This document shows, in pieces, positions 20,968-60,293 of a DNA stretch of 64,000 bases (positions are counted from its first letter, which is position 1; each line of letters starts with the position of its first letter). The stretch is taken from sequence record PP261279.1. The stretch is one strand, 5' to 3'. The notes beneath the pieces were generated by a model. That model was not told the origin of the DNA and searched no databases. It saw nothing but the letters and a program-made list of their open reading frames with translations. Source of the stretch: Escherichia phage ECP2303. The translations under genes and the position numbers were made by a program.

Positions 20968-21234
20968 TTAAGCTTTTTGCTCTTCGTTTTTAACGTGGTC
21001 AGGGTGCTGGCAACCCCACCGGAGCGAGATGAATTTGCTAATAAGCTGGGGGCAGGCTACTGAAGGTGCATATATCCACGCATACCATTCAGGAAGCGTA
21101 TCATTATACCCCATATGAATAAACACCCCAGTCATCACCGCCATGCCTATGTTCGACCATAGCTTAGATTGGGATACTTTCGTAGGGTCATCAGATGCCG
21201 CAACCAGTCCCCATAAAAACTGAGTTAGTTTCAT
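20968..21234 (-). CDS. Small membrane protein, holin-like (88 aa)
   Basis: One or two predicted transmembrane segments (WSNIGMAVMTGVFIHMGY, WYAWIYAPSVA...) and a charged C-terminus (HVKNEEQKA). Confidence 0.4.
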   Translation of the reverse strand: MKLTQFLWGLVAASDDPTKVSQSKLWSNIGMAVMTGVFIHMGYNDTLPEWYAWIYAPSVACPQLISKFISLRWGCQHPDHVKNEEQKA

Positions 21235-21245
21235 TTACCCTCTTT

Positions 21246-22292
21246 TTAAGCATAAGATATAGTGATCCATTGACCGTTTACAAGTTTTTGGATAGCACCT
21301 GTCCAGTAATCACCTTGATAAGGGTGTTTATAAGCGTAGTTACCAGAGCACATCACATGTCCAGGGTAGACTCTTGACTCTCTGTAGGTGGTTTTGAAAC
21401 GGTTTGCTATCCTTACATCGTCAACCCCTCTACTGGGCATAGGGACAGTAAGGTTACCACTACCGTCTGCGCTGTTACCGTTTACCCTGCGGACCACGTT
21501 TCTTCCACCAACGGTTGCATATTGGCCTCTAACGGTTTCATCGTTACAATCAACTCTTCCACCTATTTGAGCGCTTCCGCAGGATTGTTGTCCGTTAACA
21601 GTGGCTCTTGGTATCGTGACCGCATTGGCATTTGCAGAGGAACTTTTTGCATCGTTGCATTCAAGATTTCCTTGGATAGCCAGTCTTGCACGGTTGGCAG
21701 TTATAGCATTGAGCTTCATAGCCGAAAACACAGGCTGCCCACCAGAAGGTTGAAATCTCCAACGGAACCCGTCTATTTGGTGAGAAGGATCATCAAGGTC
21801 TGTGCCGTCAGCACCACCGATGTTGTCCATAATCCAGAAATCCATCGTCGTCTTGTCTGGCGTTATGGTGGTATATATTGCCGCACTGTCTGTTGACGCA
21901 GATGCAAACTCGATTCTTTGGAGACCTAAAGTTTGAGTCTGAGTCATTATGTCTCCAGACTTGTCAACATATAGATCGTCCATTTCTTCAGGTGAGTATA
22001 CATTGAGAACTTGACGTGCAGCAGCTTTGTCTGGAACGTCTGCTAGATTATTAGTGACCCTTAAGAATCTATTATCCCATCCTGGGACAACATCTTCTGT
22101 TAAATGCTTCAACCACGCAGAAAGCATGTGAAGTTCAAAGTTAACAACTTCACATGCCATTCTTTGTGTCATATCCCAACCTTTCAATCTCTCTTCTTTT
22201 TTTGGTTGAGACTTATTCAACTCTCCCGTATTTTCAAGCACAACATCCTGATTGGCCCAAATATCAAGAGGGATAACTGGTTTAGTCATCAC
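21246..22292 (-). CDS. Tail fibre protein with P2 gpH-like C-terminal tip (paralogue B)
   Basis: C-terminus ...AIQKLVNGQWITISYA resembles the P2 gpH C-terminus (...IQKYINGTWYNVAQV, quoted from memory). N-terminus is shared with the 23304-24344 paralogue. Confidence 0.7.
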   Translation of the reverse strand: MMTKPVIPLDIWANQDVVLENTGELNKSQPKKEERLKGWDMTQRMACEVVNFELHMLSAWLKHLTEDVVPGWDNRFLRVTNNLADVPDKAAARQVLNVYSPEEMDDLYVDKSGDIMTQTQTLGLQRIEFASASTDSAAIYTTITPDKTTMDFWIMDNIGGADGTDLDDPSHQIDGFRWRFQPSGGQPVFSAMKLNAITANRARLAIQGNLECNDAKSSSANANAVTIPRATVNGQQSCGSAQIGGRVDCNDETVRGQYATVGGRNVVRRVNGNSADGSGNLTVPMPSRGVDDVRIANRFKTTYRESRVYPGHVMCSGNYAYKHPYQGDYWTGAIQKLVNGQWITISYA

Positions 22293-22378
22293 GTTCTCCT
22301 GAGAAAATTCCTTAGGACTATTTTAACACTTTAGAGAACAAAATGCAAGAACGGAGTCCTTTCCGTTCTGACCTTTGT

Positions 22379-22693
22379 TTACCTTTTACTATGCTCTACG
22401 AGCATGTGCAAAATCTTTTGTACATCAGCTCGGATGCCGGAGACATCTGTCCTGACATCCTGCTTAAGGTCGTTAATATCGGCCTCTAGCTTGCTTAACC
22501 GGGTCTCGATAACGGAATCAAGTCTATCTTTTGTAACCATACTGTTTTTCACTAAGATGAGGTCTTTCTCCAGTTCATCCAACCTCTGGGAAATGCCTTT
22601 CCATTTGGTGTGCCACTGGTTGAAAGCCCATACACAGATCGGGACAACGGTACCCATACAGATACCGTACAATGCCGCCAAATCCAACTCCAC
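22379..22693 (-). CDS. Membrane-anchored coiled-coil protein (104 aa)
   Basis: N-terminal transmembrane segment (LAALYGICMGTVVPICVWAF) followed by a heptad-like charged helix; lies between Tfa and fibre B. Confidence 0.45.
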   Translation of the reverse strand: MELDLAALYGICMGTVVPICVWAFNQWHTKWKGISQRLDELEKDLILVKNSMVTKDRLDSVIETRLSKLEADINDLKQDVRTDVSGIRADVQKILHMLVEHSKR

Positions 22694-22704
22694 AACACCT
22701 CCTC

Positions 22705-23289
22705 TTAGAGGGTAGGTCGCTCCGGGAAGAAAATGTCAGGGGCTTTAGATGTATCTATTTCAAGAAGTTTTACCCTGTACATTTTCAAATCTCTGATGTT
22801 ACGTTTCTGGTCATCAGTAAGATCATATTCAAGGTCAATCATGTCTTGATAGGCACCAATTCTAGCAGTAGCCCAAGCAAGTTCTGTCTCTATGACACCC
22901 TCTGCCTGTTGAACAAAGAATTCATTGTCTGTGACAAATTCATCACCAACTAAACGCAAAGCGTCGTGGTGAAGCATAATGTTTTCTGGTACCTCTTCTT
23001 TTTTGGCGATAACCACACGAAGACCTGGAGCAGGCCATAAGGCATCAGGTTCTTCTGTAGATGTCTTAAGAATTCCCTTCTCGTCAACAAGTAGGAAGAT
23101 ACAACCTGGATTTTCTTGTCGCAATGTTCGTGACTGCACATACCAATCGCCATCATCATTACGTAAAAAATACCCAGTGTATGCGGTGTAATCCTCAACC
23201 TCTTGAGGGGTCAGCTCCTTGGTTTCCTTGTTGGCGTGGTATTCGCCAGATCCCGGTTGGTAAAGTTTAAACTCTTGAAGTATTTTCAT
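22705..23289 (-). CDS. Tail fibre assembly chaperone (Tfa-like)
   Basis: C-terminus KMYRVKLLEIDTSKAPDIFFPERP closely matches the lambda Tfa C-terminus (...[21 protein letters not shown]..., quoted from memory). Sits immediately downstream of fibre A. Confidence 0.7.
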   Translation of the reverse strand: MKILQEFKLYQPGSGEYHANKETKELTPQEVEDYTAYTGYFLRNDDGDWYVQSRTLRQENPGCIFLLVDEKGILKTSTEEPDALWPAPGLRVVIAKKEEVPENIMLHHDALRLVGDEFVTDNEFFVQQAEGVIETELAWATARIGAYQDMIDLEYDLTDDQKRNIRDLKMYRVKLLEIDTSKAPDIFFPERPTL

Positions 23290-23303
23290 GCTAGTCCTCC
23301 GAT

Positions 23304-24344
23304 CTATGCATAATTAACAGTGATCCATTGACCGTTTACAAGTTTTTGTAAAGGTCCTGCCCAGTAAGTTGAACCACGCATCTCTTTTTTGTCACCGAAA
23401 TGCCAGCCTGTGACAACGTAGCCGTTGCGGATTGGAGATTCAGAAACGCCGTCCACAAGTCTTGCACCGATTCTGATGTCTTGCACACCTGTCTGCGGGA
23501 TAGTGATCGTTACATCACCGTTACCGTTAGCCGTCACTCCGTTCACAGAGCGAACCACATTTCTGTTACCGACAACACAGTGCTGGCTTCTTACAACCAT
23601 ACTGTCACAACTTGCACCACCATTAACATATACTGACCCAGCCGTCAATTGACTAGCCACATTGCAGTTGGTGAATGTTGCTGTATTACTGATAGTAAGG
23701 TTATTACACCTCATGTTATCGACAACTTCAACATTGCCTACCACTTTCAACAGCGCACGGTTAGCCGTGATCGCGTTAAGGTACATCAAAGTGAACTCTG
23801 GATTAATATCCGGCTGAGTTGGCTGGAATCTCCAACGAAACGCATCTACTGTAGATGTACCGCCATCATCAAACGACCCGGTATTATCACTTAACCCAAA
23901 GTCGAGAGTTGTCTTATCTGGGCCAATAGTCGTCTCTATCCAAGCCTTATCTGTCTCGGCAGCTTTAAAGTTGATACGTTGCAAACCCAAGGGGCCTGTC
24001 ATTGTATCACCTGTAACTTTTACATACCTGGCGTCTGCCTCTTCCTTGGTAATAATCCCAAGGTTTCTACGGGCAACAGGGATGTTCAAAAGATCACTCA
24101 AGTTATTATCACGTACCAGATAACGGCCTTCTTGAGCGGGGATCTGCTCGTCAGCAATATATTTTGCCCAAGTTCCGAGCATATTGAAAATATAGTTAAG
24201 TTCTTCACATGAGGGCTTTTGACCAAGATCCCAACCTTTTCTCCACAAATCATCAATCGGGCGTAGCCTGTTCTGTCTGTGGGTGTTAGGCAGAACCTGA
24301 TCCTCCTCTGCCCAAATCTCTAATGGAAAACTAGGTTTTGACAT
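23304..24344 (-). CDS. Tail fibre protein with P2 gpH-like C-terminal tip (paralogue A)
   Basis: C-terminus ...PLQKLVNGQWITVNYA. Conserved N-terminus (P.EIWA..D.VLPNT...KGWD) and a divergent central region relative to paralogue B. Confidence 0.7.
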   Translation of the reverse strand: MSKPSFPLEIWAEEDQVLPNTHRQNRLRPIDDLWRKGWDLGQKPSCEELNYIFNMLGTWAKYIADEQIPAQEGRYLVRDNNLSDLLNIPVARRNLGIITKEEADARYVKVTGDTMTGPLGLQRINFKAAETDKAWIETTIGPDKTTLDFGLSDNTGSFDDGGTSTVDAFRWRFQPTQPDINPEFTLMYLNAITANRALLKVVGNVEVVDNMRCNNLTISNTATFTNCNVASQLTAGSVYVNGGASCDSMVVRSQHCVVGNRNVVRSVNGVTANGNGDVTITIPQTGVQDIRIGARLVDGVSESPIRNGYVVTGWHFGDKKEMRGSTYWAGPLQKLVNGQWITVNYA

Positions 24345-24356
24345 TTTATCTCCTGA

Positions 24357-26429
24357 TTATGAGAAGTCTGGCGGGACAACATCTTCTACATACCCTTTCA
24401 GAGCAACCTGCCCCATATGAAGCACGGTAGAATCTCTAGCGGTAACAGTGATGCTGTCAGACATTACTTGCGGGTATGCCCACACATACTGTTTTACCTC
24501 AGGGTATCTATACTCTATAGTTGCCATGTTTCCGCAAATACATCTCCATAAAAATTCTTGGTAATTCCTAGTTGGGTCATAGCCATATACCGGAGCAAGC
24601 TCTTTACTAGGAACGAACCCTGCAAGGTATTGTATTTCAGACGGTTGCCAACCTAACCTAACGATAGGTATGTTTACAGACTCTTTTGCCTTTTCAATAC
24701 CTCCCTGCATCACCCAATCGTAGCACTCGGTGCAGAAGAAATCAAGAGCACCTGCTTCCTTTTTATATTGGTCAGCAAGGTTCAGCTTTTGTGTAAGCTC
24801 GGTTTCCATAATGGTTGGGAAAAACAGCAAAGCTGTCATCTGAGCTGATGCAGCGTGTGCCTTTACTGCCTTTGAAATAGCCGCAATACGAGCGCCAAGC
24901 TTACCACGACAAAATGCCACATACTTGTCGTAAACACCGCCAGTTTTAGGATCGTCAATAGTCCCAATATCTAATGCATACTCACCTGTCTCATCATAAA
25001 ACGCCTGCTTTGTAGGGTAATCATAAATACAAGGCCTACGAGTATCGGTATTGTACCACCACCACGGTTCACCAACCTGCATAATCACTGGCAGGTTGTT
25101 TCTCATAGCGGCTGATGCAAAATTCTTAAATACTGCAGTAAGGAAATTCATACCCTCTTCAATGGTTGGAGATAGGAGGTAGCTACAAGGTGTATACCCT
25201 GTTTTAGCGTAGTTATCGTTCCAGTCTCTTTGGGTCCATTCCAACGGGCAGGCATCGCTGAAAAGCTCAAAACTTACAGATTGCATAACGTCGAAGTTAT
25301 GTCGTTTGGCATTGTACATAAAATCATCATGCCATTTATAAGCTGCAGCGTTTAGCGCTCCTGTTCTGTTTATAGACCATTGGGTTCCGGACCATGTGTA
25401 GTCATAATAATGACTCATACCAACATAATGGTTTATGGTTCCGGTATATCCCAGACGCTTGATATTGTTCAACACCCTTAAAGGAGAGACGTTCCACATA
25501 TCGTCATATGCGGTGCAGATCCCAACGTCGTGCTCTCTCACCTGAATATTATTAAGTTGCATCATTTTCCAGCCTGTGTCTGGCTGAAGCAAATCTAGGC
25601 GCAACTCACACTCTACATTTTCCGTTCTCGGGTCTGTGCTATTACTTACCCAGTCTTTAGGCATGAGTGGTATTAAAATCCTTCTCACCTGCCGAGGATC
25701 AACACCCATCATGTTGTTGTTCTGGTCCATCCCGACGCAGTCCTCGAAATCAATATGAATTTCTGCAACATTCTTATCCTCTGAGATGCTGACAGCATAT
25801 TGAGCTAAAGGAACATAGATGATTGTGCCATCAACAAGGTCTACAGTCATAATCATCTTTTCAGGAGTGGAGAAGTTGCTGGCGTTGGTTATTGACATTC
25901 TGAACCAAAGTTTGGTGTTTCTCATCTCATAGTGATCATCAAACCCAATACCGAAATGGTCATACTTGTCAACTGTTTCCCAAATGCATCCAGCCATACC
26001 CCCATATGTTCTTGACACTAAACGGTTAATACAACAGTTGTTATCTGCAACAATACAGGTACTTTCAGTCTGCTGAGTAGTTGTAACCCAATATCTTGGG
26101 TGGAACATTCTCTCCTCGACAGTATCCCAAGATATCCTGTCAAGATTCTCATCTGAAACTATTGTACATTTCGCCCTTTGTGTCCCGATCATCACCCCTT
26201 GAGATTTTGATGAAAACTCCATAAAGAAGCTTCTTGGCAACCTGTTGGGTAATTTGTCAACAATTTCCACCGGAATCTCAATACTGGTTGCCCCGACTGG
26301 GATAGTTACATCGCCCTCAACATGATCATAATCCCTACCAGGAACGGCAGTATCCTGAACTGTGCGGTAATGAAACTGCGCAGCCATTGTAGAGTAATCA
26401 CGGTAAGGTTTAAAAACAGCTGTTGCCAT
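24357..26429 (-). CDS. Structural protein with N-terminal Calx-beta-like motif; possible fibre proximal part or carbohydrate-active domain
   Basis: Calx-beta-like motif near the N-terminus (VPGRDYDHVEGDVTIPVGATSIEIPVEIVD). Trp/Tyr-rich C-terminal domain. Position is equivalent to the proximal part of an H-like fibre. Confidence 0.55.
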   Translation of the reverse strand: MATAVFKPYRDYSTMAAQFHYRTVQDTAVPGRDYDHVEGDVTIPVGATSIEIPVEIVDKLPNRLPRSFFMEFSSKSQGVMIGTQRAKCTIVSDENLDRISWDTVEERMFHPRYWVTTTQQTESTCIVADNNCCINRLVSRTYGGMAGCIWETVDKYDHFGIGFDDHYEMRNTKLWFRMSITNASNFSTPEKMIMTVDLVDGTIIYVPLAQYAVSISEDKNVAEIHIDFEDCVGMDQNNNMMGVDPRQVRRILIPLMPKDWVSNSTDPRTENVECELRLDLLQPDTGWKMMQLNNIQVREHDVGICTAYDDMWNVSPLRVLNNIKRLGYTGTINHYVGMSHYYDYTWSGTQWSINRTGALNAAAYKWHDDFMYNAKRHNFDVMQSVSFELFSDACPLEWTQRDWNDNYAKTGYTPCSYLLSPTIEEGMNFLTAVFKNFASAAMRNNLPVIMQVGEPWWWYNTDTRRPCIYDYPTKQAFYDETGEYALDIGTIDDPKTGGVYDKYVAFCRGKLGARIAAISKAVKAHAASAQMTALLFFPTIMETELTQKLNLADQYKKEAGALDFFCTECYDWVMQGGIEKAKESVNIPIVRLGWQPSEIQYLAGFVPSKELAPVYGYDPTRNYQEFLWRCICGNMATIEYRYPEVKQYVWAYPQVMSDSITVTARDSTVLHMGQVALKGYVEDVVPPDFS

Positions 26430-27115
26430 TAACCCTCCTGTCTAGTTGCGTTTACTGTAATACTTTCACAATAAATGGTTGTGGTGTCCCAATCAGGTCT
26501 TACGTCAGGAACATACAGCAAAGTAGCCAGCCCACCAACTCCGAATTGGTTTTCTTCCCACACTGATCCGAAGCCAAGAGCTGTATGGTCCCCTTCAAAA
26601 CCAAAAGCTTGCCCTTGCGATTCTGTAAGACGCAAATGACAAGGCAATGGTAGCATGTCTAAGATCTGATCGATAGACTGCAATATGTCAAAGCAAGTTT
26701 TTCTAATATTTATGTCAAATCTGAAGTTGTCTCCTTTCCACGTATCGAAATTGTCCCTTCCGAACAATTGTCGCAAGGTGGAGATGACATCTTCGCGAGT
26801 CCCACCCCTTGATGCTGCGGCCTGCTGAATAATCAGCGTGGCACGAAAATCAGCATCTGAAAGTCCATTCCTAAGAATACCAAGTTGATTACCAACTTCG
26901 TCAAGGTATCTTCCGCTAGCATTGTTAAGCAATCTTCCTTCAGCCAAACCTACCAGCATCTTATCAACATCCTCCAACCTTTTAAGGTACACGGTTAAGA
27001 ATGTGACCAAATTAACCTTCTCAGCCAGAAAATCTCCAGGCAGGTAGTCAAGACCTCCCTGAACAAAATCTGGCAGAGTGTGGATGTGGTTAACATCCGA
27101 CTTAATCTCTGCCAT
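26429..27115 (-). CDS. Baseplate-associated protein (P2 gpI-position equivalent)
   Basis: Immediately downstream of the baseplate J-like gene with a stop/start overlap; function assigned from gene order only. Confidence 0.45.
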   Translation of the reverse strand: MAEIKSDVNHIHTLPDFVQGGLDYLPGDFLAEKVNLVTFLTVYLKRLEDVDKMLVGLAEGRLLNNASGRYLDEVGNQLGILRNGLSDADFRATLIIQQAAASRGGTREDVISTLRQLFGRDNFDTWKGDNFRFDINIRKTCFDILQSIDQILDMLPLPCHLRLTESQGQAFGFEGDHTALGFGSVWEENQFGVGGLATLLYVPDVRPDWDTTTIYCESITVNATRQEG

Positions 27116-27126
27116 ATCTCGCCGCC

Positions 27127-28617
27127 TTAAATAGTTTGTTGGAAAGTTATATTACTTTCGTCGAGGTCAAACACCTCGGTCATGTTCGCAACAATATCGT
27201 TTGTAGTGTAAGCTTCATCAGAAGCTCCTACTGGTTTAACTTGAATTACCAGTCTATTAAATCTGCCTATTGACACAGCAGCAGATGCAGCACCGACCAA
27301 TTGGATATTATACAACGTATCTGCAACATCCAGTCCGTTAACAACCTGTAAAAGAGCCTCTACAATGGCATCTTTTTCGGTTGTGGAAAGCGCAGCACCA
27401 GAGTAGGTAATTCTTACATCCAGGCGGTAGGTATTTGCCTTGGAGTAATAAATTCTTTCAGTTTGACCGTCAGATGTAGTGACATCGTAGAAAATATTAC
27501 CATAAGTCCTGTTCGTACAGGCTATAGTTTGGTAAAGTGCTTGGCAAATGTCCTCCGTTGCACCACCAAACACAACCACTTGGAACTTGTAAGGAGGTAT
27601 ACCTTTAGCATCAGTTTTATCGGTGTTGTTGGAGAACACTCTCACTTTCTCAACACCTTTCACCTCGCTTACAGCGCTAAGGATTGCAGGACGGGTAGCC
27701 TTAGATGTTAACTGTTTTGTGCTGGAAGCTCTTAAGCGATACTCTGAGTCTTTCTCAACATCTCTGCCCTCATTGAATCTTTCTCGGTTGGTAAGTTTGA
27801 TAAATCCACTAGGGGTAGGTGACATTGTTGTCACGGTTTCTGCCTCTCTTGACAGCTCACCAGCCTCGTTAGCGATAACATCCAGGGTGATAGTTCTTTC
27901 TCCTACAATCGGGGATACTCTGAAATCTACCCTGCTATTAAGTCCAACTTGATCAAGATTCGAATTGTACCCTATCCACAACGTTCCTGTCAACATATCG
28001 ATCTGAATCAAATCGTCGTTCAACAGGGTTGTATTATCGACAATGAACTGCTTAATCTCTCCGTAAAAGCTTGGCAGATCAGAGGAGTCCAGAGCCTTAT
28101 CTGTTAAAACCAGACTTTTTGTTTTGATACTTCCGTCTGTCTGGTTGGTAATTTGAAAGTTGTATTTCCCAATTCTTAGGTCTGGAGCGTTTATTCTGTG
28201 AGCAATAAGATTTCCAGCCACCTGCACATCGTTGCTAAGAACAAAGTTGCCACTGTCCAGCGTATAAGTTTTGGAATCATAAATCATATTGTACGGCACA
28301 GTTGTGTTGATTGTCAACTGGCAGGTACCTGATGATTTAGAACGGCCTCTTCGGTAAATACCCTGCCTTCCAAGAAGCTCATCCAGGTAAATACCTTCTG
28401 CCCCATACAGCGTCTGTGATGCGTATACAGATGCTGCCATAAGAATAAGTTGATATTCTCGCTCGTTGAAAATAGTGGTCAGCTTATCTGCAACTGAGTT
28501 ACTCTGTACGTTGAAGTTTTCGCCAAAAGCACGGATCAGGCTTTGCTTAGTTTCAACGATTAGGTCATTTAGGGTTGGTATAACGAAACCAGCCTCTGTC
28601 AATCCATACTTAGCCAC
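27127..28617 (-). CDS. Baseplate J-like wedge protein
   Basis: 496 aa. N-terminal pattern (LTEAGFVIPTLNDLIVE...AFGENF) and size fit the baseplate J/gp6 family. Sits in a V-(W)-J-I-H-G-like order. Confidence 0.55.
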   Translation of the reverse strand: MAKYGLTEAGFVIPTLNDLIVETKQSLIRAFGENFNVQSNSVADKLTTIFNEREYQLILMAASVYASQTLYGAEGIYLDELLGRQGIYRRGRSKSSGTCQLTINTTVPYNMIYDSKTYTLDSGNFVLSNDVQVAGNLIAHRINAPDLRIGKYNFQITNQTDGSIKTKSLVLTDKALDSSDLPSFYGEIKQFIVDNTTLLNDDLIQIDMLTGTLWIGYNSNLDQVGLNSRVDFRVSPIVGERTITLDVIANEAGELSREAETVTTMSPTPSGFIKLTNRERFNEGRDVEKDSEYRLRASSTKQLTSKATRPAILSAVSEVKGVEKVRVFSNNTDKTDAKGIPPYKFQVVVFGGATEDICQALYQTIACTNRTYGNIFYDVTTSDGQTERIYYSKANTYRLDVRITYSGAALSTTEKDAIVEALLQVVNGLDVADTLYNIQLVGAASAAVSIGRFNRLVIQVKPVGASDEAYTTNDIVANMTEVFDLDESNITFQQTI

Positions 28618-58063: not shown

Positions 58064-59611
58064 TTAGATAAAACGCTTGAACATAGAAGGTGATGAGATT
58101 GATGGAATCACACAAGGCAGCGCTACCTCCTCTTTCTCTAGGAAATTAATCGCAGAAGCTACACAGTCGGCCCAGTCGTCTTTTCTGTTAAATGTTGATC
58201 TTTCCCCGTTGAACTTTTCAAGTTCAGTCAGAAATGCTTCCAGAGTGTCAGGATGGAAACTGGATTTTACAATCCTCACCATTCCTTGTTGGGCAAGATT
58301 GGCAAAAGGTGAGAACCTTGTCAGTTTAGATTTGTTGGAAGGCATTGGATCTTCTTCAACCCTGAACCCTTCGGCGAGCAAGGATCTGGATGAGGTTAAG
58401 AACTCACTCTTACCTGCCTGGCCGGGGTCCACAGAAAATACGATTATGCAATCATCTCCATCAAACTGTGCCTGTTTCCTGATGATCACATCTCGTTCCC
58501 CAGCCTTTTTACAGAACTTGCCTTCCAGACCTGTGGAATACCTACCGTCATCCACGTTCTCAGGACAATAATCTCCGGACAGGTAATAAAAGCCGTCGCT
58601 ATCTTTACTTACCTTAACACTGGCGGTAAAGTCAGGAAATTTATTACCGGAAGTTCTCTCGGTCCCTGCCTTATCCCATGCCCTGCAAGATACTGATCCA
58701 AGAGGTACTCTATCGGCATCCCGAAGGAAAGATCTTTGGAAATAGTTTGCACCCTCAGGTTTGGCAAACCAGTTGCCATGAAGAAGCTGGGCTTTTTCAA
58801 GCTCTGGCAGACCTTCAAGGAAAGCAAGGTATTCTGGGTTGTCTCTCAAGCAGACAGGATTATCGAAAATTGTTGCGCCTATAAACGAGAATGACAACGG
58901 TCTTGGCTTGATCTCCACACCCAGTCCGTTAACCGTGGTGTATTTCTCTATTAACTCTTCTTTAGAGTCTCCCCAAATAAATTCACCGTCGCGTCGGATA
59001 AAATATCTTTTCTTACCACATTTCTCCGGATCTGGATACCCTTCATCGTCCAACCACCACCTAACCAGTTTGGCAAGCATGTGTTCTGAGTCGGGGTTAC
59101 AGCTGATAACCATTCTTGATGGATACTTTGACTGAGATCGCAGACGAGACATCAAATAGTCTATCTGCTCCCATTCGAATTGCGTGCCTTCATCGAAGCA
59201 AACCATGGTGTACTCAAGGCCTTGATGGTTAAGCTTATCTTGGACATACTCCATGTGGCAGTATTTTACAACGGCCCCCTTTTTGCTCCTATCCCACTTG
59301 CCAGTGCTCGGATCAAACCGTGGAAAAATAAACTTATGATCCTTCTCTCTGAACTTTGGTTTAATGTTTTCAGGCAGATCACTGTAAATAGCTACTGCTT
59401 TAGGCCATAGCCCACCCTCACCTTCCAACTGGGGAGTTGTTCTTCGGAACATAACCACAGAGCTGTGCGGGTCATCAATAATTTTAAGCGGCATTAGCTG
59501 CAAGAGGAACGACTTGCCAGACCCAGCTGCACCTCCGATCACCAAAATATCTGCATCGTTCTCTAGGATCATCTTCTGCTTTTCAGAACACGGTCCGTAA
59601 ATCTTAGACAT
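58064..59611 (-). CDS. Terminase large subunit
   Basis: 515 aa. Walker A GGAAGSGKS, Walker B MVCFDE, and a C-terminal nuclease-type acidic region (VFSVDPGQAGKSEF). Start overlaps the o-spanin stop. Confidence 0.9.
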   Translation of the reverse strand: MSKIYGPCSEKQKMILENDADILVIGGAAGSGKSFLLQLMPLKIIDDPHSSVVMFRRTTPQLEGEGGLWPKAVAIYSDLPENIKPKFREKDHKFIFPRFDPSTGKWDRSKKGAVVKYCHMEYVQDKLNHQGLEYTMVCFDEGTQFEWEQIDYLMSRLRSQSKYPSRMVISCNPDSEHMLAKLVRWWLDDEGYPDPEKCGKKRYFIRRDGEFIWGDSKEELIEKYTTVNGLGVEIKPRPLSFSFIGATIFDNPVCLRDNPEYLAFLEGLPELEKAQLLHGNWFAKPEGANYFQRSFLRDADRVPLGSVSCRAWDKAGTERTSGNKFPDFTASVKVSKDSDGFYYLSGDYCPENVDDGRYSTGLEGKFCKKAGERDVIIRKQAQFDGDDCIIVFSVDPGQAGKSEFLTSSRSLLAEGFRVEEDPMPSNKSKLTRFSPFANLAQQGMVRIVKSSFHPDTLEAFLTELEKFNGERSTFNRKDDWADCVASAINFLEKEEVALPCVIPSISSPSMFKRFI

Positions 59612-59898
59612 TAACCTCTCTCCTTTGGAAACAGTGTTCTTATATAGTCTTGCAAAATGATCAATTTAGCTCTATCATTACTACAAGACAGGTTATTATC
59701 CCTCATAATGCCAGAATTCACCGCATCTGGCGCACCTTTCTTCAAAGGGATAGCTTTAGCAGGTGGTTTCATAGCACCCTCGGGAGGTTTAACAATCAAC
59801 CTTCCTACATTCGGAGGGTCAATCTTGTATTCTCTCTCAACGCTGGTTGCACACCCACACAATAACAAGCACAAAACAACCAGTGCAGTAACTCTCAT
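59611..59898 (-). CDS. o-spanin (outer-membrane lipoprotein, Rz1-like)
   Basis: Signal peptide with lipobox (LLLCGC); Pro-rich mature part (PPNVGRLIVKPPEGAMKPPAKAIP); 95 aa; immediately downstream of the i-spanin. Confidence 0.65.
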   Translation of the reverse strand: MRVTALVVLCLLLCGCATSVEREYKIDPPNVGRLIVKPPEGAMKPPAKAIPLKKGAPDAVNSGIMRDNNLSCSNDRAKLIILQDYIRTLFPKERG

Positions 59899-60293
59899 CG
59901 AACCTCCTGATTGATACTCTCATTATAAATATCTATTAGCTGATCAGGAAGTGTTGACTTCTTACCTTCAGGAGATTGGAGGTAGATAATCTGCTTTTCT
60001 TTACCTGCCTTCTCAGCCATATTTAATTTATCCTGTAGATCAGAAAGAGATTTTTCAAGGTTTTTAACCTCCTCTGCGTGGCCCATTTTAATTTTGTCGG
60101 CCTGCTTTTGTTGTTGGTCAAGGATCCGTTCCCACTTTAACTCTGTTGCTGACACACCTTCTTGATAAGCATCATTGAGCTTAGAGTTAAACCAATACAC
60201 GGCCCCAAGATAAGCCATGCCTATAGCCGCTGCAAAAACTAAACCTTTTATGATCCCTCTGTGTTTACTCATCAATGTTAAAACTGAAATCAT
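59895..60293 (-). CDS. i-spanin (Rz-like)
   Basis: N-terminal transmembrane segment (GLVFAAAIGMAYLGAVYWF) followed by a long charged coiled-coil; ATGA overlap with the o-spanin gene. Confidence 0.6.
   Translation of the reverse strand: MISVLTLMSKHRGIIKGLVFAAAIGMAYLGAVYWFNSKLNDAYQEGVSATELKWERILDQQQKQADKIKMGHAEEVKNLEKSLSDLQDKLNMAEKAGKEKQIIYLQSPEGKKSTLPDQLIDIYNESINQEVR

Follow-up and report, generated by a model that had tools for sequence, protein, structure and literature searches.

Two small membrane protein genes in the duplicated short-tail-fibre module of an rV5-like coliphage are candidate lysis genes

The 64,000-nucleotide stretch of Escherichia phage ECP2303 that we analysed (PP261279.1; hereafter the window) comes from an rV5-like coliphage (Vequintavirus), a virulent 137-kb myovirus, and holds between positions 20,968 and 24,344 a module of five open reading frames (ORFs), all on the minus strand. 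Two of these encode short tail fibres, one encodes a tail fibre assembly chaperone, and two encode small membrane proteins of 104 and 88 amino acids (aa), which follow the chaperone gene and the second fibre gene, respectively (Table 1). Our reading, to which we give a probability of roughly 55%, is that the region is a short-tail-fibre module with two embedded late lysis genes, one of the holin type (88 aa) and one of the releasin type (104 aa). DNA similarity searches found the 7.5 kb around the module to be 100% identical in Escherichia phage ECP2309, which served as the reference genome for the window, and ~98% identical in rV5 and more than 100 other Vequintavirus genomes. For the module and its flanks, window coordinates equal ECP2309 coordinates minus 32460, and in the module region the rV5 coordinate is the window coordinate minus 31.

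Table 1. Features of the short-tail-fibre module, in window coordinates and in order of the minus strand.
Feature	Position	Strand	Match or basis
Short tail fibre paralog 1 (rV5 gp33 equivalent)	23304..24344	-	PHROG 4465 'tail fiber protein' 1.8e-171
Tail fibre assembly chaperone (rV5 gp32 equivalent)	22705..23289	-	Pfam Caudo_TAP 8.4e-12; PHROG 136 2.1e-36
104-aa bitopic inner-membrane protein (rV5 gp31 equivalent), candidate releasin-like lysis factor	22379..22693	-	PHROG 5345
Terminator-like hairpin, directly 3' of the 104-aa gene	22348..22369	-	Pattern scan
Putative late promoter P030 of rV5, upstream of fibre 2	22305..22341	-	TTGTTCTCTAAAGTGTTAAAATAGTCCTAAGGAATTT; identity to published motif prediction
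Short tail fibre paralog 2 (rV5 gp30 equivalent)	21246..22292	-	PHROG 4465 2.7e-166
88-aa small membrane protein (rV5 gp29 equivalent), candidate holin-type	20968..21234	-	PHROG 1322 2.7e-32

A first-pass annotation of the window had taken the two fibre genes for paralogs, and pairwise alignment bears this out. Fibre 1 (346 aa) and fibre 2 (348 aa) align end to end, including both termini, at 43% identity (E = 1e-95), and both finish in ...QKLVNGQWIT(V/I)(N/S)YA. The accompanying description of shared ends around a divergent centre needs correcting. Identity is patchy throughout; the last 27 residues are 59% identical, the best-conserved 30-residue window is in fact central (fibre 1 residues 118-147, 67%), and the lowest-identity windows (27%) begin at fibre 1 residues 60, 204 and 290. 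At the DNA level only the final 63 bp of the two genes can be aligned, at 84% (21246-21308 and 23304-23366), which points to strong constraint on the tip that binds the chaperone or, alternatively, to gene conversion.

The same annotation called the fibres P2 gpH-like, which is only loosely correct. The solved relatives that we found are different ones: fibre 1 matches the short tail fibre of phiTE with residues 1-108 (9cuy_c, E = 1.4e-19) and the tip of Mu GpS with residues 286-343 (5yvq_A residues 440-501, E = 1.7e-6). The phiTE model has the fibre N-terminus (modelled residues 3-92) attached to the wedge of the baseplate, and the short fibre of phi92 connects to the wedge protein; the single ortholog in each of these phages is a downward-pointing short fibre. 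In our reading, both Mu-GpS-type paralogs have an N-terminal domain for baseplate attachment and a C-terminal tip that is conserved, and they differ most just before the tip, as would fit two receptor specificities.

The chaperone gene begins 15 bp after fibre 1, and its product matches Pfam Caudo_TAP (PF02413) over residues 121-192 with 45.8 bits against a curated cut-off of 22.1; this is the family of Mu GpU, P2 gpG and lambda Tfa. Neither the module ORFs nor their PHROG matches include a second chaperone after fibre 2, in agreement with the first-pass observation that only the first fibre is followed by a Tfa-like protein. One chaperone probably folds the tips of both paralogs, which is plausible because the tips are conserved. 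The module thus resembles the Mu GpS/GpU pair (PDB 5YVQ) and the phiTE fibre (PDB 9CUY) in its GpS-like tip, its Caudo_TAP chaperone and the 108 N-terminal residues that correspond to the wedge-binding part of phiTE, but unlike these systems it has a tandem fibre duplication with a single chaperone. The fibres are also much shorter, with 346 aa here compared to 504 and 554 aa in the Mu GpS and phiTE systems. Mu itself has an invertible segment that carries two S/U pairs.

As a pair of alternative receptor-binding proteins, the fibres had been interpreted correctly, but this had already been published: Kropinski et al. 2013 (PMC3606486) described gp30 and gp33 of rV5 as 42.3% identical, T4 gp12-like paralogs that may recognise two lipopolysaccharide (LPS) chemotypes, gp32 as an assembly protein and gp31 as a membrane protein with one transmembrane domain (TMD), and passed over gp29 without comment. 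Maffei et al. 2021 (BASEL) likewise reported two paralogous short tail fibres and one chaperone, homologous to Mu GpS/GpU. The rV5 gp33-gp32-gp31-gp30-gp29 locus and the BASEL Vequintavirus loci have the same genes in the same order as the window, at ~98% DNA identity. The fibre duplication is correct but ordinary, and it adds nothing new. However, these publications, which already annotate the paralogous fibres, the single chaperone and the 'membrane protein, 1 TMD', assign no role to gp29 or gp31, and the links of the two small proteins to Mu-like lysis cassettes are new in the present analysis. In the part of the rV5 virion mass spectrometry table that we examined (Additional file 5, PMC3606486), loci 29-33 are not among the entries, whereas the main text names gp30, gp32 and gp33 among the proteins detected by proteomics. 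That part of the table documents neither both fibres nor the small proteins in virions.

Both small genes recur at 20-55% identity across the sampled Vequintavirinae genera (Seunavirus, Certrevirus and Avunavirus) and in the related Phapecoctavirus, and because they are conserved across genera we regard them as real genes. Seunavirus, Certrevirus and Avunavirus share a gene order in which fibre and chaperone are followed by the 104-aa homolog, then by a polytopic membrane protein of 152-157 aa, the 88-aa homolog and the next fibre. The polytopic protein belongs to PHROG 7451 (loci L004 4519-4977, L005 5312-5785 and L123 5312-5785, from Certrevirus, Seunavirus and Avunavirus) and adds a third uncharacterised membrane protein to this cluster, located exactly where Vequintavirus has fibre 2. 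A tblastn search of ECP2309 gave no counterpart of it (E > 2). Since fibre 2 occupies its position and ECP2309 has no copy, we conclude that the fibre duplication replaced the polytopic protein.

The synteny of the small genes with fibre and chaperone is strictly kept across Vequintavirinae, and for the 88-aa family also in Plateaulakevirus, as would be expected if the small proteins were non-virion, membrane-associated morphogenesis factors for the short fibres or the baseplate. Mass spectrometry of CB7 virions is compatible with such a role, as it detected the flanking fibres but not the chaperone and the three small membrane proteins (together CB7_32-35). We nevertheless consider a morphogenesis role very improbable: in Phapecoctavirus a 113-aa counterpart of the 104-aa protein follows the chaperone, but the 88-aa homolog lies upstream of a baseplate wedge gene, away from the fibre, and the homologs in Mu-like phages described below stand apart from the S/U fibre genes and are flanked by lysis genes. 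We know of no fibre chaperone that is an integral membrane protein.

We turn to the proposed lysis genes, and to the 88-aa protein in particular. It has two uncharged segments of 17-18 residues (approximately residues 26-43 and 50-66), with peak 19-residue hydropathy windows at 25-43 and 53-71 (Kyte-Doolittle ~1.0), and it matches the PHROG 1322 profile over residues 1-87 of 88. An exhaustive profile search of 1.8 billion representatives yielded 67 family clusters, and all 64 aligned members match PHROG 1322; a word-indexed protein search retrieved close relatives only. The family consensus reads G..SHTKFWSNIg....T..F in the first segment, then a short acidic loop, W..YL..VA....SK..S.KyG in the second segment and a C-terminal tail that is charged but variable. 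Charge is positive before the first TMD in 52 of 64 members and after the second TMD in all 64, the loop has a net charge of zero or below in 59, and 12 members have an extra N-terminal TMD. These charges predict an N-in/C-in hairpin with a charged C-terminal tail for the 88-aa protein.

In its small size, predicted hairpin and charged tail, the 88-aa protein resembles class II holins such as S68 of phage 21, which have two TMDs and an N-in/C-in topology. Its predicted late-operon position following fibre genes has precedents as well, in T4 (37-38-t) and in a T7-like phage where a lysis protein comes after the fibre. It differs from these holins in its unusually low hydrophobicity and its lack of a Pfam holin match, and the family profile matches neither T4 T nor T7-type Hol46. 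We considered Hol46 of phage PZL-Ah152 as experimental support and set it aside, as it belongs to the T7 type of holin and bears no relationship to PHROG 1322.

The first-pass annotation had raised a lysis role for the small membrane proteins, and real support for this comes from homologs in endolysin-spanin cassettes of other phages, which make the 88-aa protein a holin-type candidate. The family profile matches gp80 of Pseudomonas phage Bise (8.6e-25) and ORF27 of Ralstonia phage RS138 (1.1e-17), and the window protein itself matches Bise gp80 in direct BLASTP at 4e-10. Both are Mu-like phages. In RS138, a late activator and an endolysin gene precede the PHROG 1322 homolog, and an Rz-like spanin follows it; Bise has Mor and an M15 peptidase before the homolog, and further genes between the homolog and the terminase. 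The 80 viral-contig loci yielded 18 non-redundant genes that abut the homolog upstream, at least 16 of which encode peptidoglycan hydrolases, and downstream neighbours match Rz-like spanin PHROGs in 8 of 10. (Only same-strand ORFs were counted, over-extended starts were trimmed by hand, and near-duplicates and one spurious frame were dropped.) The upstream hydrolases belong to at least five unrelated Pfam families (VanY/M15_4, Amidase_2, M15_3, GH108 and Amidase_3).

Holins usually sit in this slot, between endolysin and i-spanin. That PHROG 1322 keeps this position while the type of endolysin changes is holin-like behaviour. In addition, the endolysins of Bise and of one viral contig (L047) have, as judged by eye, no N-terminal hydrophobic segment, and thus depend on a hole-former for access to the periplasm.

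The 104-aa protein has a different build. It begins with a 4-residue acidic N-terminus (MELD), followed by a single strong hydrophobic segment at residues 5-23 (Kyte-Doolittle 1.9) and a predicted cytoplasmic helical domain of ~80 residues. An AlphaFold2 model shows two long helices, 5-50 and 55-103, with a predicted local distance difference test (pLDDT) score of 87. Charges predict an N-out/C-in topology in 17 of 18 family members, with +2 to +3 in the 12 residues after the TMD. Of the transmembrane helices that the first-pass annotation expected in both small ORFs, the one in the 104-aa protein is clear, whereas the segments of the 88-aa protein are only weakly hydrophobic.

This layout recalls the releasin of Mu, gp25, which according to Chamblee et al. 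2022 is a 99-aa, N-out/C-in protein with four periplasmic residues and a 73-aa cytoplasmic domain that is required for release of a signal-arrest-release (SAR) endolysin. The two proteins are alike in their size of ~100 aa and, as far as the 104-aa protein is predicted, in the 4-residue periplasmic N-terminus, the N-terminal TMD, the basic cytoplasmic junction and the helical cytoplasmic domain. BLASTP of the 104-aa protein against gp25 gives E = 0.012. Aligning the two families with hhalign gives a probability of 70.5% (E = 3.9e-5) over 97 collinear columns, end to end, and 200 column shuffles that kept the TMD/cytoplasmic layout reached a maximum score of 19.8 compared to 31.9 for the real alignment. 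A rotation control, in which small rotations are absorbed by gaps, shows only that ~19-21 of the 32 score units come from the N-terminal third. Two other TMD-plus-coiled-coil families of Mu-like cassettes reach only 0.4-12% against either family in hhalign. Weak cross-matches connect PHROG 5345, PHROG 15210 and PHROG 462, the last of which is the TMD-plus-coiled-coil protein of these Mu-like lysis cassettes. Finally, Mu-like cassettes with PHROG 1322 often bear an N-terminal-TMD coiled-coil gene of the PHROG 462 or 736 type two or three genes downstream, one product of which reaches DUF2730, the Pfam family of gp25, at 1e-4; both kinds of protein therefore co-occur in both settings.

We suggest, from predicted topology and profile similarity, that the 104-aa protein works like a releasin and is possibly a distant relative of one, and we do not claim membership in DUF2730. 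The first-pass proposal of a holin/antiholin pair thus stands in part: homologs back a lysis role, but the 104-aa protein, with its N-out topology and cytoplasmic coiled coil, is releasin-like rather than an antiholin. Other identities were considered and rejected. An i-spanin (Rz-like) would have the opposite topology (N-in/C-out) and pair with an o-spanin lipoprotein gene, and the genome has its spanin pair at 59611-60293; no more than a weak PHROG 739 match was seen, for the Phapecoctavirus counterpart. Scattered Pfam coiled-coil matches, including one to XhlA over 20 residues, were weak and treated as noise. XhlA is built the other way round, with the coiled coil first and a C-terminal TMD. 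A Foldseek search of the model against viral structures found only generic helical proteins and none at E <= 0.001.

Late expression of both small genes is suggested by predicted promoters. P036, a published predicted late promoter, precedes the baseplate gene at the head of the block with the 104-aa gene, and P030 lies upstream of fibre 2 and hence of the 88-aa gene. That the CB7 small membrane proteins were not detected in virions is likewise in line with a lysis role. The P030 sequence in the window is identical to that in Table S4 of Kropinski 2013, where it is a motif prediction only. Fibre 2 starts at the ATG at 22289 in annotated records. The hairpin has a stem of 8-9 bp with 4 G-C pairs and a weak T-run. 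Together, hairpin and P030 (22305-22369) would divide the module into a part with fibre 1, chaperone and 104-aa gene and a part with fibre 2, 88-aa gene and the next fibre.

We propose the following model. As an N-in/C-in hairpin, the 88-aa protein would most likely insert into the inner membrane and trigger lysis late in infection by permeabilising or depolarising it. The 104-aa protein, whose helical cytoplasmic part is tethered to the membrane, would most likely help to free or activate a membrane-anchored endolysin. The candidate partner is a SleB-like hydrolase encoded at 2036-2536 on the minus strand (PHROG 938 'endolysin', 1.7e-27), whose stop overlaps the start of rIIA (57-2039). Its N-terminus, MKIKIFAIILSAFLSLPVVAAPK, resembles a signal peptide or signal anchor, and it could be a secreted or membrane-tethered endolysin that is handled by a releasin-like protein. 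The spanin pair adjoins the terminase gene, and a T4-lysozyme-type enzyme and a gp129-type holin candidate are encoded outside the window. These genes are far apart, so the lysis genes are dispersed, as in T4. The first-pass annotation had argued that a holin in the fibre module would explain why none is seen next to the spanins. With lysis genes scattered and another holin candidate, rV5 gp129, already proposed, this argument is weak on its own.

In fact, the true holin could be a protein of this gp129 type (75-78 aa, two strong TMDs and a basic tail), with the 88-aa and 104-aa proteins acting as accessory regulators (antiholin, timing or endolysin handling). Kropinski 2013 (PMC3606486) proposed gp129 as the holin, and the ECP2309 counterpart of 75 aa (record 125502-125729) exceeds a Kyte-Doolittle value of 2.5 in two segments and ends in the tail YYKNIRKESRDGDRT. 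The CB7 authors in turn proposed a 65-aa class II holin beside the SleB-like gene. The weakly hydrophobic segments of the 88-aa protein resemble TMDs of the SAR or pinholin type, which favours this alternative. However, the gp129-type gene is on the plus strand, in a transcription unit that the rV5 paper separates from the late structural genes, whereas holins are late genes (Chamblee et al. 2022). The later curated annotation of LL12 still found the holin not positively identifiable. PHROG 1322, for its part, occupies the endolysin-spanin slot of cassettes whose endolysins have no export signal. On balance we think it unlikely that gp129 is the holin and the two small proteins are accessory.

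Several observations weigh against the holin-plus-releasin reading itself. For the 88-aa protein, the hydrophobic segments are weak, and the 2013 rV5 annotation gave gp29 no TMD. AlphaFold2 places helices at the segments, but the model is poor (pLDDT 59, too low for a fold search). The window protein matches no Pfam holin family and has no Pfam match at all, and no phage-collection record that we examined names a PHROG 1322 member a holin. DUF2644, a family of uncharacterised function whose name one source gave a relative, is weakly matched by only 5 of 64 members; we found no literature mention of it and rejected this identity. For the 104-aa protein, DUF2730 (PF10805) is not among the Pfam matches of any of the 18 family members at E up to 5, whereas Mu gp25, as positive control, scores 2.5e-13. 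Coiled coils yield many spurious weak matches, and an hhalign probability of 70% is not proof of homology. The net charge of the cytoplasmic domain is ~0 to +2, whereas that of gp25 is described as mainly anionic. DUF2730 proteins have been reported only in transposable phages, within 5 genes of an endolysin; the 104-aa gene instead sits in the tail-fibre module of a virulent myovirus, and neither small gene adjoins an endolysin or spanin gene in this genome. The strong hydrophobicity (Kyte-Doolittle 2.5) at the N-terminus of the SleB-like protein recalls a signal peptide that is cleaved off rather than a SAR domain. There are also the rival holin candidates, the gp129 type and the protein beside the SleB-like gene (CB7_82). 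The lysis role of both small proteins is an inference.

A further difficulty is the homolog of Stenotrophomonas phage Marzo, a T4-like Menderavirus (L012 4938-5249), which stands alone among replication genes, on the opposite strand between the DNA polymerase and dUTPase/RegA genes, in neither a lysis-cassette nor a tail-module context. T4 imm maps in the corresponding area. This location speaks for a possibility that the first-pass annotation had listed beside lysis, superinfection exclusion, or for the related one that the small proteins mask receptors. Llp and Cor of T5-like and T1-like phages are factors of this kind, encoded beside the receptor-binding proteins. The filing of PHROG 1322 under 'moron, auxiliary metabolic gene and host takeover' fits such a role, as does the presence of both small genes beside receptor-binding genes in several genera. 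In contrast, the Mu-like homologs lie inside lysis cassettes, far from fibre genes, and in the window the small genes are co-oriented and tightly spaced among structural genes with predicted late promoters. The matches listed for family members do not include the Imm, SieB or Cor families. Moreover, a sugar of the LPS core serves as terminal receptor, and a small protein of the inner membrane could not easily mask it. Exclusion is thus less well supported than lysis, and we judge it improbable.

Holin-type and releasin-type lysis genes therefore remain our favoured reading of the two small genes. A bolder version is tentative and, in our estimate, rather doubtful: PHROG 1322 could be a widespread, unannotated holin family and the 104-aa protein a distant releasin, together forming a lysis pair common to Mu-like transposable phages and the large virulent Vequintavirinae, in which it would be hidden in the short-tail-fibre module. 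Collections and cocktails of E. coli phages often include rV5-like phages, yet curated annotations leave the holin not positively identified (LL12) or report none (KPP-1). The candidate pair, supported by the gene neighbourhoods of homologs in many lysis cassettes, makes this gap directly testable. If correct, hundreds of phage records in which the family is labelled only 'membrane protein' or 'hypothetical' could be updated, releasins, shown so far only for Mu, would extend to virulent myoviruses, and the missing holin of rV5-like therapeutic phages would be identified, making it possible to engineer their lysis timing.

The genes around the module follow the same direction. On the minus strand, a baseplate J-like gene (27127-28617), a gene for a 228-aa protein (26429-27115) and one for a 690-aa fibre protein (24357-26429) precede fibre 1; chaperone, 104-aa gene, fibre 2 and 88-aa gene come next, and then a 581-aa fibre and an 1878-aa fibre. 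The 690-aa protein matches the TIM-barrel of the Pfam 'non-contractile tail sheath protein' (1e-80), its N-terminal domain and Calx-beta, and is annotated in BASEL as a glycosidase/deacetylase lateral fibre.

Two observations concern database records. PHROG 462 is labelled 'lipoprotein', but the cassette members that we inspected (L010 4704-4982 and viral contigs L049, L073, L075 and L119) have an N-terminal TMD, a coiled coil and a conserved LP.(E/Q)Y.RRED.IR motif, and no lipobox. The label looks wrong, and these proteins may be further releasin-like proteins. In addition, 16 'Campylobacter phage' records (GenBank MG0656xx; host Campylobacter jejuni) are ~98% identical to the rV5-like coliphages in this region, so that their host assignment looks doubtful.

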